Shown here: one piece after another, positions 40,727 through 46,535 of the stretch
How the letters are laid out: the number at the start of each line of letters is the position of its first letter
Numbering within the stretch: the stretch's first letter is position 1
DNA from: a virus
Taxonomy: Duplodnaviria; Heunggongvirae; Uroviricota; Caudoviricetes
DNA length: 51,169 nucleotides
IMG/VR virus record: IMGVR_UViG_2541047830_000012
Direction: 5' to 3' (one strand)
The notes under the pieces: model-generated
Seen by the model: the letters and a program-made list of their open reading frames with translations, nothing else
The model's database searches: none
What the model was told of the DNA's origin: nothing
Translations under genes and position numbers: made by a program

Positions 40727-40844
40727 ATGTAAGTATTTCCTTAGATAACAATTGATTGAATGTATGCAAATAAATGCATACACCATAGGTGTGGTTTAAT
40801 TTGATGCCCTTTTTCAGGGCTGGGATGTGTAAGAGCGGGGTTAT

Positions 40845-41054
<210 letters not shown>

Positions 41055-41071
41055 TTAGTACATGCAACTAT

Positions 41072-41135
41072 TATCACCGCTAGAGGTAAAATAGTCAACA
41101 CGCACGGTGTTAGATATTTATCCCTTGCGGTGATA
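41072..41135. promoter_or_regulatory. Right operator OR1-OR2-OR3 with divergent pR and pRM
   Basis: OR1 TATCACCGCTAGAGGTA (41072-41088), OR2 CAACACGCACGGTGTTA (41096-41112), OR3 TATCCCTTGCGGTGATA (41119-41135); match lambda operators as recalled, with one mismatch in OR1. Confidence 0.85.
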
Positions 41136-41142
41136 GATTTAA

Positions 41143-41859
<717 letters not shown>

Positions 41860-41977: not shown

Positions 41978-42883
41978 ATGCCAAATTTACCGATGGGCGG
42001 ATCGCAGGGTGAATTACCCTTAGTACCTACAGTAGAAGTTGTTGCTGATGGCATTCCTATGGGGGTGCTTAATGATGGAACCCCTTATCTAACTCTTTAC
42101 GGTTTAGCCAAATTATGTGGCATAGATGAAGCACCTCTTCGAATGTTTACATCTAACTGGGAGACTGAAAAAAATAAGCCAAGAGGACAAAAAGTAGCTG
42201 CATACTTAGCTGAGAAAGGATTTAACAACGTTGACCGACTGTATACCCGCGTCATAAATAGCTCAAACGTTGAAACACATGCTTATCCTGACTATGTTTG
42301 TATGGCTATCCTCCGTTACTACGCTCTAGATGCCACCAATTTTGATAGGTCAGTCGCAATAGGTAATTTTGTTCGCTTGGCTGAGTACACGCTTAAGCGA
42401 ATGATTTATGAAAAGTCAAATTACAACCCAAATGCTTCAATAGATATCTCATTCGAGAACTATAGAGCAAGGATTAAGCTAAACGATCAGATACCGACAA
42501 CTCATTTTGCAGTATTCAGAGAGATAGCTGACATTGCCATGAACCTGATCGGAGGAGGATTCCCAATGGATGACACCACATCTTTGGATGGAAGTGTTGG
42601 AATTCACTGGGGAAAGTATTGGACAGCTAATGGGCTATCTGAGAAATTCGGGGAAAGGGTGCAGTACCCACATCTATTCCCCGAAAATTACAGGCAGTCA
42701 GCTGCAAATAAGCATATAAAAGCTTGGATTTATCCTATTGAGGCACTTGGCGTGTTCAGAAAATGGCTACACGATAATTACGCAATGGAAAAACTGCCAA
42801 ATTACCTTGGGAACAAAAAGATTAGTAATGCCTCCGAGCTATTAGAGTTGATAAAAAAACCAGCACTCCCAAATAAGCATTGA
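41978..42883 (+). CDS. Uncharacterised 301-aa protein occupying the rexA-rexB position
   Basis: AAGGAAA RBS; AT-rich coding sequence; palindromes upstream and a GC hairpin terminator downstream; N-terminal segment IPMGVLNDGTPYLTLYGLAKLCGI weakly resembles Bro-N/KilA-N/antirepressor N-terminal DNA-binding motifs; rest unrecognised. Confidence 0.7.
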   Translation: MPNLPMGGSQGELPLVPTVEVVADGIPMGVLNDGTPYLTLYGLAKLCGIDEAPLRMFTSNWETEKNKPRGQKVAAYLAEKGFNNVDRLYTRVINSSNVETHAYPDYVCMAILRYYALDATNFDRSVAIGNFVRLAEYTLKRMIYEKSNYNPNASIDISFENYRARIKLNDQIPTTHFAVFREIADIAMNLIGGGFPMDDTTSLDGSVGIHWGKYWTANGLSEKFGERVQYPHLFPENYRQSAANKHIKAWIYPIEALGVFRKWLHDNYAMEKLPNYLGNKKISNASELLELIKKPALPNKH

Positions 42884-42897
42884 TCTCCACCACAACC

Positions 42898-42924
42898 CGG
42901 CATCTGCGCCGGGTTTTCTTTGCC
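42898..42924 (+). terminator. Rho-independent terminator after the rex-position gene (timm analogue)
   Basis: CCCGGC-atctgc-GCCGGG followed by TTTTCTTTG. Confidence 0.6.
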
Positions 42925-43071
42925 TAACGCCCCCAAAAAACACATAACCAATTGTATTTATTTTAAAATTAATAGATACAACTCGCTAAACATCGCAATT
43001 CATATCTCTCGATCACCTTCCCAATCCACACAACCCTGCAAAAAATAAATCTATATAAAAAACATACAGAT

Positions 43072-43134
43072 AACCATCTGCGGTGATAAATTATCTCTGG
43101 CGGTGTTGACATGAATACCACTGGCGGTGATACT
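43072..43134 (+). promoter_or_regulatory. Left operator OL3-OL2-OL1 with pL
   Basis: AACCATCTGCGGTGATA, TATCTCTGGCGGTGTTG, TACCACTGGCGGTGATA; -35 TTGACA (43106-43111), -10 GATACT (43129-43134); match lambda as recalled. Confidence 0.85.
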
Positions 43135-43172
43135 AAGCACATCAGCAGGACGCACTGACCACCATGAAGGTG

Positions 43173-43204
43173 ATGCTCTTAAAAATTAAGCCCTGAAGAA
43201 GGGC
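43173..43204 (+). promoter_or_regulatory. nutL (boxA and boxB)
   Basis: boxA TGCTCTTA and boxB hairpin GCCCTGAAGAAGGGC, the latter identical to lambda boxB as recalled. Confidence 0.8.
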
Positions 43205-43361
43205 AGCATTCAAAGCAGAAAGCTTTGGTGTGTGTGATACGAAACGAAGCATTGGCCGGAAGTGCGAATCCGGATTAGCTGCCAATGTGCCATTGCGGGG
43301 TGTTTTCGTTCAGGAATACGACTCCCACACACAACCAAAGCTAACTGACAGGAGAATCCTG

Positions 43362-43688
43362 ATGGATGCACAAACACGCCGCCGCGAACGTCGCGCAGAG
43401 AAACAGGCTCAATGGAAAACAGCAAACCCCCTGTTGGTTGGGGTAAGCGCAAAACCAGTTAACCGCCCTATTCTCTCGCTGAATCGCAAACCGAAATCAC
43501 GAGTAGAAAGCGTACTGAATCCGATAGACCTTACAGTGCTGGCTGAATACCACGAACAGATTGAAAGCAACCTGCAGCGTATTGAGCGCAAGAATCAGCG
43601 CACATGGTACAGCAAGCCACGCAGTGAAATGGGTGTGACTTGTGTTGGTCGCCAGAAAATGAAATTAGGCAGCAAACCACTTATTTGA
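43362..43688 (+). CDS. N: Antiterminator N
   Basis: MDAQTRRRERRAEKQAQWKTANPLLVGVSAKPVNRPILSLNRKPKSRVES… matches lambda N as recalled; start at internal ATG 43362. Confidence 0.9.
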   Translation: MDAQTRRRERRAEKQAQWKTANPLLVGVSAKPVNRPILSLNRKPKSRVESVLNPIDLTVLAEYHEQIESNLQRIERKNQRTWYSKPRSEMGVTCVGRQKMKLGSKPLI

Positions 43689-43699
43689 GAGGAATTAAT

Positions 43700-44323
43700 A
43701 TGTCATCAATCCGCTTAACTACGAGAATGAAAGAGGAAATCGCTCGTAACGCTTTAATTAAGTCTGGGGTTTTCACTGAACTTGAAGAAGTAACAAAGTT
43801 AAAGAACCAGCTTGCACTTGACGCCAGAGTTATTGCGTTTGGCGGGAAAAAGAAAACTGAGGAAGTTGATCAGTTATCATCCAAGTTGGTAGCTATAAGT
43901 GAAGAACTTGAAAAGATGGGATGTTCATTTTACTCATACGATGTTCGTTCTACTTCAATTTATCTGACTGCATCTGGCAGAAGGATTGGATGGCATTCAT
44001 ATGGGAAAGACGGCAACGGCGAAGATATATTGCTCCCTACTCCGAACAAAGATAAATGCATGTTTAGCGCAGAACACGAAATAACAAAAAGGTTTGATGA
44101 AATCTGCGCATTGCAACAAAAACTTGAAGCCAAGAAAAAGGATATCGAATCAAATGTATGGGCTGCTTTGAACTCAGTCACAACAGTTAAGCGACTTATT
44201 GAGGTTTGGCCTGAAAGCAAAGAATTGCTACCAAAAGAAGCAGATAAAGCAAGTACAGCACTTCCTGCTTTACGGGTAGAAGATTTGAATAAGATGATTG
44301 GACTTCCTTCCGAGGCCGCATAG
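43700..44323 (+). CDS. Uncharacterised 208-aa pL-operon accessory protein
   Basis: AT-rich ORF straight after N in the ral/sieB position; own terminator overlapping its stop; no recognisable motif. Confidence 0.6.
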   Translation: MSSIRLTTRMKEEIARNALIKSGVFTELEEVTKLKNQLALDARVIAFGGKKKTEEVDQLSSKLVAISEELEKMGCSFYSYDVRSTSIYLTASGRRIGWHSYGKDGNGEDILLPTPNKDKCMFSAEHEITKRFDEICALQQKLEAKKKDIESNVWAALNSVTTVKRLIEVWPESKELLPKEADKASTALPALRVEDLNKMIGLPSEAA

Positions 44324-44338
44324 TCGGCCTTTATTTTT
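44313..44338 (+). terminator. Rho-independent terminator (tL1-like)
   Basis: AGGCCG-catagt-CGGCCT followed by TTATTTTTGG. Confidence 0.6.
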
Positions 44339-44386
44339 GGCATAAACAACAGAATAAACACTGCACTGAATTATTTGAGGTGAGAT

Positions 44387-44857
44387 ATGACAAAATCACG
44401 GAGCGTACCTTTTCCTGAATCAGAAACTGAACATAATGGAATGCCTGTTTTCTGGAGATTCCAAGCGACAGTTGAAGAAGATGGAATCAAAATATTCGCA
44501 CTTCAATATATAGCTTTTCATCAGACAGAGCATTATGCATGGTTGGTTCCTGCGCATTGGATTGTTGATTTTAAACCAGCACCAAATCAGTGGTTACAGG
44601 AATGGAAACAAAGGAGAAATAGATATGCAATTAAGAAAGTAGCAAAAAATGCAGAAAGATCTTTTGCATTCCCAACGAAGAAACTTGCTATTGAAAGTTT
44701 ATTGCGTCGGAAGAAATACCATTTAATGAGAATAAAACAAGATTTGGCTGTTGTATCAACTCTTGTTGATGGGATGAAAAATATTGATACATCAATACCA
44801 GATATTGAATATAACTTTGGACACAACCAAGAAACAGAAAATTGGGTATTTTATTAG
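44387..44857 (+). CDS. Uncharacterised 156-aa pL-operon accessory protein
   Basis: GAGGTGAG RBS; AT-rich; followed by a 9-bp inverted repeat and a terminator; no recognisable motif. Confidence 0.6.
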   Translation: MTKSRSVPFPESETEHNGMPVFWRFQATVEEDGIKIFALQYIAFHQTEHYAWLVPAHWIVDFKPAPNQWLQEWKQRRNRYAIKKVAKNAERSFAFPTKKLAIESLLRRKKYHLMRIKQDLAVVSTLVDGMKNIDTSIPDIEYNFGHNQETENWVFY

Positions 44858-44961
44858 TACGAATAAGCACTGTGTATTCATTCCAACGAGTGAATACACG
44901 GAGCAATGTCGCTCGTAACTAAACAGGAGCCGACTTGTTCTGATTATTGGAAATCTTCTTT

Positions 44962-44988
44962 GCCCTCCAGTGTGAGGGCGATTTTTTA
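44962..44988 (+). terminator. Rho-independent terminator
   Basis: GCCCTC-cagtgt-GAGGGC followed by GATTTTTTAT. Confidence 0.6.
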
Positions 44989-45007
44989 TCTATGAGGATA
45001 TGAATAG

Positions 45008-45376
45008 ATGTCAAACATCAAAAAATACATCATTGATTACGACTGGAAAGCATCAATAGAAATTGAAATCGACCATGACGTAATGACAGAGGAAAAACTT
45101 CACCAGATTAATAATTTCTGGTCAGACTCTGAATACCGACTCAATAAACACGGCTCTGTATTAAATGCTGTATTAATCATGCTGGCGCAACATGCTCTGC
45201 TTATAGCAATTTCAAGCGACTTAAATGCATATGGTGTTGTGTGTGAGTTCGACTGGAATGATGGAAATGGTCAGGAAGGATGGCCTCCAATGGATGGTAG
45301 CGAAGGAATAAGAATTACCGATATCGATACATCAGGAATATTTGATTCAGATGATATGACTATCAAAGCCGCCTGA
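45008..45376 (+). CDS. Hypothetical acidic protein (122 aa)
   Basis: ORF with GAGGA RBS; Asp/Glu-rich C-terminus. Confidence 0.55.
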   Translation: MSNIKKYIIDYDWKASIEIEIDHDVMTEEKLHQINNFWSDSEYRLNKHGSVLNAVLIMLAQHALLIAISSDLNAYGVVCEFDWNDGNGQEGWPPMDGSEGIRITDIDTSGIFDSDDMTIKAA

Positions 45377-45410
45377 GAGCGTTTTTAAAGAATACAACGA
45401 AGGAGGATAT

Positions 45411-46379
45411 ATGAGTGAAGTAACAGATTTAGTTGTTATTGAAAAATCAAATGCAATGACTGTATTTCAGTCTGCCGACCAGATTGAAGAAATCCTTCAA
45501 AAGGTTGAACGTGAAGTTATGTCCTTTGTTCCTGATATCACAACGGCAAAGGGCAGGAAGGAGATCGCTTCTCTGGCGTATAAAGTTGCGCAGACGAAAA
45601 CATATCTCGATGGTCTTGGCAAAGACCTTGTTGCTGAACTGAAGGAAATTCCAAAGCTAATTGATGCCAACCGCAAGACAGTGCGTGATCGCCTTGATGA
45701 GCTGAAAGCCAAGGCACGCCAGCCTCTTACTGATTATGAGGAAGAACAGGCGCGGATTAAAGCCGAAGAAGAAGCTAAGGCAGCAGCTGAAGCTCTCGCA
45801 AAGCAAATTGAGTCTGACCATGAAATAGCTATTTTGATGGATCGCGAATTTGACCGCCAAAGAGAAGAGGCAAGACTCAAAGCGGAGCAGGAAAAGCGAG
45901 AGCATGAAGAACGCTTAAAAAGAGAAGCTGAAGAGAAAGCCAGAGCAGAAGCCGAAGCAAAGGCAAAAGCCGAAATTGAAGCAGCAGCAAGGCGAGAAGC
46001 AGAAGCTAAGGCCGCTGCGGAACGAGCAGAGCGTGAACGCATTGAAGCCGAGCAACGAGCACAGCGCGAAGCAAAAGAGGCAGCAGAACGAGCTGAAAGA
46101 GAAAAGCAGGCAGCAATTGAAGCAGAACGCAGAAAAGCACAGGAGGAGGCTGAACAAATCCGTCGCGATGCTGAAGCAAAAGAGCAAGCCAGAATAGCAG
46201 AAGAAAAAAGAATCAAGGACGAAGAAGAGCGTAGAGCAAAGGATAAAGCTCACCGGAAAGAAGTTAATAACAAAATACTTGCTGACCTTATCAAGGTTGG
46301 CGCATCAGAAGATGTTGCTAAAAATATCATAACAGCCATCGTAAAAGGCGAAGTATTCGCAACAAAAATAACCTACTAA
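45411..46379 (+). CDS. Coiled-coil protein with charged E/A/K/R-rich central region
   Basis: 322 aa; AGGAGGA RBS; long low-complexity AEREAKAAAE-type stretch; the opposite-strand ORFs in this stretch are artefacts. Confidence 0.6.
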   Translation: MSEVTDLVVIEKSNAMTVFQSADQIEEILQKVEREVMSFVPDITTAKGRKEIASLAYKVAQTKTYLDGLGKDLVAELKEIPKLIDANRKTVRDRLDELKAKARQPLTDYEEEQARIKAEEEAKAAAEALAKQIESDHEIAILMDREFDRQREEARLKAEQEKREHEERLKREAEEKARAEAEAKAKAEIEAAARREAEAKAAAERAERERIEAEQRAQREAKEAAERAEREKQAAIEAERRKAQEEAEQIRRDAEAKEQARIAEEKRIKDEEERRAKDKAHRKEVNNKILADLIKVGASEDVAKNIITAIVKGEVFATKITY

Positions 46380-46403
46380 TAAAACCAACATAAGGAACCA
46401 CCC

Positions 46404-46535
46404 ATGATTTACGCAATCGCGGGAGGCGCTCGCATGGGTGCCTTCCAACTAAATGAATCTTTACTTGAACGAATCACCCGTAAATTACGTGACGGATGGA
46501 AAAGAGTTGAGGTCTTATTATGCGCAATGAAATAG
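46404..46535 (+). CDS. cIII: CIII-like protein
   Basis: Not in the ORF track (43 aa); MIYAIAGGARMGAFQLNESLLERITRKLRDGWKRVEVLLCAMK shares ESLLERITRKLRDGWKR with lambda CIII as recalled. Confidence 0.7.
   Translation: MIYAIAGGARMGAFQLNESLLERITRKLRDGWKRVEVLLCAMK

Follow-up and report, generated by a model that had tools for sequence, protein, structure and literature searches.

A gp45-family cargo gene between N and PreS in the early-left operon of a lambdoid Escherichia coli prophage

The closest described settings for the gene studied here, an open reading frame (ORF) of 156 amino acids (aa) at positions 44387-44857 (+ strand) of the 51,169-nucleotide (nt) virus record IMGVR_UViG_2541047830_000012, are found in the early-left (pL) operons of lambda, HK97, and 933W. 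The whole stretch of 51,169 nt is referred to as the window. In lambda, ral (restriction alleviation) is a small early accessory gene of the pL operon located immediately upstream of a linker, the PreS locus, and ea10; orf28 and sieB lie between N and ral. In HK97 and 933W, the genes encoding Gp45 and ST933Wp19, respectively, come right after N. At the nutL site, N modifies RNA polymerase, which results in readthrough of downstream terminators. The moron concept (Hendrix/Juhala) describes an extra gene of deviant base composition between lambdoid backbone genes.

PreS, also named LPR1, is an Hfq-dependent small RNA (sRNA) that maps between ea10 and ral in lambda and whose 3' end is the early-left terminator tL2a (bioRxiv 10.1101/2024.10.31.621285). 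Processing shortens this RNA from about 88 to about 68 nt. Its expression is limited to the lytic cycle, and its functions are to activate the translation of dnaN and to support replication of the phage DNA. Lambdoid phages conserve it, an identity of at least 92% being the published criterion (bioRxiv 10.1101/2024.10.31.621285).

The ORF shares with HK97 gp45 and the 933W gene its orientation in the pL operon and the downstream PreS/tL2a block. The three loci differ in that, in the window, N and the ORF are separated by an Nmad5 gene and a linker of the lambda type. Judged by sequence and gene order, the ORF is shown here to be an accessory cassette that consists of one gene, a member of the HK97 gp45 family. 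It occupies a pL-operon cargo slot whose content varies between phages and whose borders are N and the PreS, tL2a, and ea10 segment. The explanation as a whole, in which a gp45-family cargo gene occupies this slot, the adjacent inverted repeat and terminator belong to PreS, and the gene is expressed early and has an early role, is considered probable.

The gp45-family gene and its cargo slot

The ORF starts with ATG, and the Shine-Dalgarno sequence GAGGTGA (44377-44383, + strand) ends 3 nt before it. The GC content is 34.8%, versus 47.8% for the window and 49.7% for N, in agreement with a preliminary description of this stretch, made from the sequence, that had noted an AT-rich ORF with its own ribosome-binding site. 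The ratio of nonsynonymous to synonymous substitution rates (dN/dS) was 0.12 to 0.16 when the ORF was compared with its homologs in HK97, 933W, and Rosenbergiella, and 40 columns were invariant across 21 Enterobacterales homologs. Because of this low dN/dS, the invariant columns, and a confident AlphaFold2 model of the product, the ORF is a real gene.

Residues 1 to 156 of the product aligned with positions 1 to 156 of the 156 positions of the PHROG 1636 profile, a family of unknown function (E = 8.1e-110). Identity to HK97 Gp45 (NP_037731) and 933W ST933Wp19 (NP_049479) was 96.8 to 97.4% over all 156 residues, and the protein was present in 83 phage records, mostly of Shiga toxin (Stx)-converting phages. 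The motifs of the HK97 gp45 family are present in the ORF, namely, the Y/W-R strand, G33, ET, K87, and the helix RFA/SFA...A101...RK..hL..hK; among 81 sequences, A101 was invariant and G33, T47, and K87 were conserved at 90% or more. The ORF lies in an early (pL-type) operon of a temperate phage and is co-oriented with int. Scans of the ORF against Pfam, NCBIfam, and PADLOC gave nothing above noise, the best PADLOC match being Cas1_II (E = 0.018, 12 bits). A literature search for a function of the protein (HK97 gp45, the RefSeq accessions, phrog_1636, and lambdoid anti-defense) found none. The gene is thus an ordinary one: the family of hypothetical proteins to which it belongs and the type of site that it occupies are both known already. 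In this copy, residue 5 is R, at a position where W is nearly invariant across the family, and residue 18 is N, where close relatives have D. The copy in the ST131 prophage may therefore be slightly degenerate.

A word-index search found homologs in Enterobacterales only (Escherichia, Rosenbergiella, Pectobacterium, Brenneria, and Cronobacter). An exhaustive profile search extended the family to 87 representatives, most of 130 to 160 aa, which share a common pattern consisting of the Y/W-R strand, G, ET, K..K, and (S/R)FA..TK..A...L..RK..QL.HLKR.L. All 40 relatives scanned fell into unannotated PHROGs (1636, 13631, and 25384), and no Pfam match was obtained for 40 distant relatives. Searches of viral contigs for distant members, with three distant members and with two alignments as the query, found nothing. 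The relatives are restricted to phages, which are of diverse kinds. In prophages of Brenneria and Pectobacterium, the homolog directly precedes xis and int, and neither an Nmad5 gene nor PreS is nearby. Distant members were located within early or DNA metabolism clusters in Pseudomonas phage Medea1, Pantoea phage Nafs113, Vibrio phage PvVp04_M, and one metagenomic contig; most of the metagenomic contigs with distant relatives were too short for gene context. Cytosine methyltransferase genes are found near the family member in Medea1 and Nafs113, RecE and a replication initiator in PvVp04_M, and QueD-like, helicase, VRR-NUC, and N6/N4-methyltransferase genes on the metagenomic contig. In three of these four informative contexts (Medea1, Nafs113, and the metagenomic contig), the family member lies 0 to 2 kb from DNA methyltransferase or base modification genes. 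This association is weak and may reflect early-region gene content only.

The gene preceding the ORF (43700-44323, + strand) encodes a 207-aa Nmad5-family protein (Pfam PF18757, E = 9.4e-72; also the name given by PGAP). The preliminary description had joined the two genes in a block, each insulated by its own terminator, that might act as a sensor-effector or toxin-antidote pair. The genes are adjacent and co-oriented in the window and in 48 E. coli genomes, and both are AT-rich cargo genes. In a Dhillonvirus, a point mutation in nmad5 led to phage escape from Tmn immunity, and the gene could not be cloned, apparently owing to its toxicity (PMC11846954); toxicity would fit one half of a toxin-antidote pair. 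However, a count over 5,426 complete E. coli genomes gave 598 (11%) with the ORF, at 834 places, and 211 with the Nmad5 gene, so that the adjacent pair accounts for only 48/598 and 48/211 of the respective carriers. Separate occurrence was observed both ways. N and gp45 are directly joined, with no Nmad5 gene between them, in HK97, in 933W, and in 292 or more E. coli genomes, and further genomes show this junction with an N of a different type. In E. coli BY68, the N region is followed by the Nmad5 gene and then directly by PreS, without gp45. Homologs of the ORF outside Escherichia had no Nmad5 neighbor. The only functional literature on Nmad5 (PMC11846954) mentions no partner protein, neither of the two proteins had a PADLOC match, the ORF had no Pfam match, and the supposedly private terminators are shared lambda backbone, as described below. 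These counts, together with the separate occurrences, indicate that the ORF and the Nmad5 gene are independent cargo genes and not partners, and a single two-gene system is highly improbable. Nothing was found in support of a sensor-effector or toxin-antidote pair, whereas the fallback in the preliminary description, two independent accessory genes, agrees with the co-occurrence counts. Occurrence of the two genes apart in other genomes is the first half of the outcome that it had named as refuting a pair; the second half, homologs of known unrelated function, does not apply to a family of unknown function.

The boundaries of the cassette were defined by comparison with lambda. There, the ral stop codon is followed by GGCCTTTATTTTTGGCATAAATAACAGAATAAACACTGCACTG and then by TGTATTCATTCC... 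without interruption. In the window, a terminator-like hairpin and the conserved linker (GGCCTTTATTTTTGGCATAAACAACAGAATAAACACTGCACTG) occupy 44312-44368 (+ strand); the hairpin (44312-44331) is at the end of the Nmad5 gene and is followed by a T-rich tail, and the linker (44320-44368) corresponds to lambda 34087-34040 with 95.9% identity. The linker thus comes after the Nmad5 gene. It ends with GCACTG at 44363-44368, and GCACTG is found again at 44867-44872, where the lambda sequence resumes. Between these points lies the gp45 cassette of 498 bp (44369-44866, + strand), which starts with AATTATTTGAGGTGAGAT-ATG and whose first bases, TTATTTGAGGTGAGAT, are also found in HK97 and 933W where the N 3' region meets gp45. 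The sequence TTATTTGAG occurs at the end of the N gene (43681-43689) and again at 44371-44379. The direct repeats GCACTG and TTATTTGAG mark the mosaic joints of the cassette, which in the alignment is a clean 498-bp insertion relative to lambda. One crossover at these short repeats between a phage of the order N-Nmad5-linker-PreS (BY68-like) and a phage of the order N-gp45-PreS (HK97-like) would produce the observed order. Transposition was considered as the source of the 6-bp duplication and rejected: a microhomology crossover between the two phage types suffices, with no transposase.

Different genes occupy the same slot in other lambdoid phages and prophages. It holds ral in lambda and in E. 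coli ATCC 25922, where sieB is also present between N and ral, an 83-aa ORF in the O157:H7 strain G5295, Nmad5 in BY68, gp45 in HK97 and 933W, and Nmad5 plus gp45 in the window. The likeness of the ORF to lambda ral is that of a small early accessory gene of the pL operon immediately upstream of the linker/PreS/ea10 region. Ral has 66 aa versus 156 aa for the ORF product, and there is no sequence relationship (hhalign probability, 0.15%). Homology of the ORF to SieB was likewise rejected (hhalign probability, 0.76%). A role shared by the ORF product and Ral would therefore be a positional analogy only.

The PreS locus downstream of the gene

Downstream of the ORF, the preliminary description had reported a 9-bp inverted repeat and a terminator. 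Both are present. The repeat, GTGTATTCA / TGAATACAC, is exact and located at 44872-44880 / 44891-44899, shifted by one base from the coordinates given earlier, and forms part of a longer stem of 12 bp (44872-44883 / 44888-44899) closed by a loop of 4 nt. The spacer between the ORF and ea10 is 150 nt long, and a perfect inverted repeat of at least 9 bp (loop of 3 to 20 nt) occurred in 192 of 20,000 shuffles of it (about 1%). RNA folding of 44858-44990 gave a z score of -4.87, and none of 200 shuffles folded as well. The terminator (44960-44987, + strand) is of the textbook intrinsic type, with a stem of 8 pairs, 5 of them G-C, at 44960-44981 and T6 at 44982-44987.

The repeat and the terminator had been described as the gene's own, which did not hold. 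Positions 44867-44988, which contain both, match the ral-ea10 spacer of lambda (34045-33924) in all 122 bases, and the same 122-nt block is present in HK97 and 933W. It was found in 327 phage records and, in E. coli, at 3,230 places in 2,237 genomes, roughly four times the number that carry the ORF, and a gp45 gene was in front of it in 566 of the 2,237. The complete identity and the position of the block after ral in lambda indicate that the repeat and the terminator are lambda backbone. By this identity, which is above the published 92% limit for PreS, 44867-44988 is assigned as the PreS/LPR1 locus with tL2a, including the 12-bp hairpin (44872-44899, + strand) as part of the conserved lambda block. 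Of the earlier view that each gene is insulated by its own terminator, the presence of hairpins was confirmed, but the downstream terminator is equivalent to lambda tL2a and does not travel with the gene.

Counted back from the U tract, the 88-nt form of PreS would extend over approximately 44900-44987 (+ strand), an extent inferred from the published size, and would start directly after the 12-bp hairpin. The processed form of about 68 nt would start near 44920. In the predicted RNA fold of PreS, a single-stranded segment separates a 5' stem-loop from the terminator hairpin; a G+C-rich terminal hairpin followed by a U tail is shared with Hfq-dependent sRNAs. An Rfam scan (E up to 1) of 42800-46500 gave nothing but a chance thermometer match, because PreS is absent from Rfam 15. 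The lambda PreS locus is preceded by ral and the linker, whereas in the window the 498-bp gp45 cassette lies between the linker and the block. HK97 and 933W keep PreS without the upstream linker. The absence of the linker in these two phages and its separation from PreS in the window suggest that PreS synthesis is independent of the linker sequence and that PreS may be processed from the pL transcript. A PreS promoter in the linker was rejected, as no -10 element of the TAnnnT type was seen by eye.

The deviant base composition and the sharp mosaic boundaries of the ORF are those of a moron. The likeness does not extend to transcription: no promoter of its own was found in the consensus scan, and the terminator does not travel with the gene, as tL2a is present in 2,237 genomes versus 566 with the gene adjacent, and the Brenneria and Pectobacterium homologs are without tL2a. 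For the ORF, the term operon cargo is more fitting than that of an autonomous transcription unit.

Expression, predicted product, and possible roles

The ORF lies, by its sequence context, inside the N-antiterminated early-left operon. The pL promoter (43106-43134, + strand), TTGACA-17-GATACT, was identified by the promoter scan, by its sequence, and by alignment with lambda, and it is located inside lambda-type oL operators. It was the sole sigma-70-like + strand site upstream of the ORF; in the consensus scan of 42800-46500, no promoter-like + strand site was found in 43134-46500. The nutL site (43174-43204, + strand), with the boxA-like TGCTCTTA and boxB GCCCTGAAGAAGGGC, was located from its sequence within the lambda-homologous block and from the lambda nutL annotation. 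A minus-strand "terminator-like" pattern match at 43190-43204 was rejected as a terminator, since it is the hairpin of boxB (GCCCTGAAGAAGGGC). The antiterminator gene N (43363-43688, + strand; 107 aa) was assigned from the ORF list and homology to the lambda N region. Early lytic expression of the ORF is expected because it is co-oriented with pL, lies downstream of nutL and N, and has no other promoter-like site.

The gene thus likely lacks a promoter of its own and is transcribed from pL, upon induction or infection but not in the lysogen. Repression of pL by cI in the lysogen would keep gp45 silent. After induction, N-modified RNA polymerase loaded at nutL would pass the hairpin after the Nmad5 gene and later tL2a, and translation would start from the strong Shine-Dalgarno sequence of the ORF. 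With such readthrough, the flanking terminators would not insulate the gene in lytic growth. The main effect of tL2a would be to set the 3' end of PreS and to limit transcription before N accumulates.

The AlphaFold2 model, built from an 81-sequence alignment, had a predicted local distance difference test (pLDDT) score of 94.8 and a predicted template modeling (pTM) score of 0.81, and all five models reached a pLDDT of at least 89. It consists of a long beta-hairpin (residues 19 to 30 and 33 to 46), a third strand (50 to 55), two short helices, a fourth strand (83 to 86), and a 33-residue helix (98 to 130). The protein is basic, with an isoelectric point (pI) of 9.3, and residues 72 to 117 contain 16 K/R and 3 D/E. 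No hydrophobic segment able to span a membrane was found in the ORF sequence. The product is predicted to be a compact soluble alpha/beta protein with a beta-sheet packed against the long helix and a very basic center. Fold searches were made with an earlier model (pLDDT 87; its other four models, 49 to 62), and the secondary structure of the final model equals that of the searched one up to residue 130. In these searches, no solved structure matched, and the BFVD matches were only uncharacterized proteins of Erwinia, Sinorhizobium, Rhizobium, Tenacibaculum, Delftia, Cellulophaga, and Pantoea phages.

The basic core, the restriction of the family to phages, the neighboring early DNA genes, and the presence of Ral in the same slot of lambda point to a possible role for gp45 early in lytic growth, in which the protein might bind nucleic acid or a host or defense factor and serve counter-defense or host takeover. 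This proposal is tentative. A broader one is more speculative still: the gp45 family might represent a phage-specific fold without a solved relative and a new early counter-defense or host takeover factor, interchangeable with ral and Nmad5 in an unremarked anti-defense hotspot upstream of PreS.

Several points weigh against the explanation of the locus given here. The promoter scan was a crude consensus match, so that a weak or noncanonical promoter active in the lysogen is possible. The exact 5' ends of PreS were derived from published sizes and are therefore approximate. R5, at the position of a nearly invariant W, might mean that this allele is impaired. The counter-defense idea draws on position, charge, and neighbors only, and methyltransferases are common in early phage regions anyway. 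No experiment or annotation assigns a function to the gp45 family.

Three other roles for the gene were weighed. It could be a lysogenic conversion or superinfection exclusion gene expressed from the prophage, a moron like sieB or BstA. The low GC content relative to the flanks, the terminators on both sides, the presence of sieB in this slot in lambda, and a BstA gene next to cI in the same prophage are consistent with such a role. No promoter-like site was found between the upstream terminator and the ATG, however, and the ORF is co-oriented with the repressed pL operon, whereas lambda sieB is on the opposite strand. The lack of similarity to SieB, of a PADLOC match above noise, and of a membrane-spanning segment also argues against exclusion, as do fold relatives in diverse phages of Erwinia, Rhizobium, Cellulophaga, and others. 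Some of the phages with fold relatives, e.g., phiEa2809, are presumably virulent, which would argue against a role tied to lysogeny. An exclusion function is unlikely. A DNA-binding regulator of phage development, acting at a phage or host promoter and not in counter-defense, would be compatible with the basic central segment, the long helix, the early expression expected for the gene, and the occurrence of the family among replication and recombination genes. Yet the gene is dispensable, as most lambdoid phages are without gp45, and the model has no recognizable DNA-binding fold; this role, too, is given little weight.

The third alternative is that the protein works with PreS as an RNA-binding or processing factor, the hairpin at 44872-44899 being a shared processing site. 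The PreS block follows the ORF in 566 of about 593 carrying E. coli genomes, the core of the protein is strongly basic, and the inferred 5' end of PreS comes directly after the hairpin. The fixed position of the cargo slot accounts for this linkage in E. coli, and PreS occurs without the ORF in about three-fourths of the PreS genomes (2,237 versus 566). Lambda makes functional PreS without gp45 (bioRxiv 10.1101/2024.10.31.621285), and no PreS sequence was found near the homologs in Rosenbergiella, Brenneria, and Pectobacterium. A functional coupling to PreS is very improbable, and the favored explanation remains that of a gp45-family cargo gene in front of a backbone PreS locus.

Prophage setting and meaning

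The window is a lambdoid E. coli prophage, and the 1.3 kb surrounding the ORF is 100% identical to several sequence type 131 (ST131; O25:H4) chromosomes. The prophage has the immunity region of lambda, reversed in orientation: 40800-41855 corresponds to lambda 38286-37231 (cro-cI) with 99.3% identity, and lambda 35826-35062 (pL, nutL, and N) aligns with 42894-43663 with 91.5% identity. The cI gene is located at 41146-41859 (+ strand). Directly 3' of it, a BstA-family gene (41978-42883, + strand; PHROG 6287, E = 5e-135; PADLOC BstA, E = 3e-106) replaces lambda rexAB and is followed by a terminator (42894-42915, + strand). BstA is a family of abortive infection genes.

Downstream of PreS, the next backbone gene of the early-left operon is an ea10 homolog (DUF2528; 45008-45376, + strand; Pfam PF10800, E = 1.8e-47; lambda homology). 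It is followed by a gene for a 322-aa protein of PHROG 1376 (45411-46379, + strand; unknown function), which is rich in E, A, K, and R and whose DNA has an extreme AT skew of up to 0.76. A cIII-like ORF (46404-46535, + strand) and a kil-like ORF come next, and then Erf, SSB, and Abc2. Between ea10 and the cIII-like ORF, there appears to be a further variable slot in the pL operon.

For lambdoid phages, these results bring a correction: the hairpins and terminators that flank a cargo gene can be conserved backbone, here a functional sRNA. Flanking terminators are thus no evidence of an insulated module or of one half of a two-gene system. As the gp45 family is widespread, occurring in 11% of the complete E. 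coli genomes, in Stx phages, and in HK97, and combines a confidently predicted, unmatched fold with a position in the ral slot, it is a reasonable candidate for anti-defense screens.

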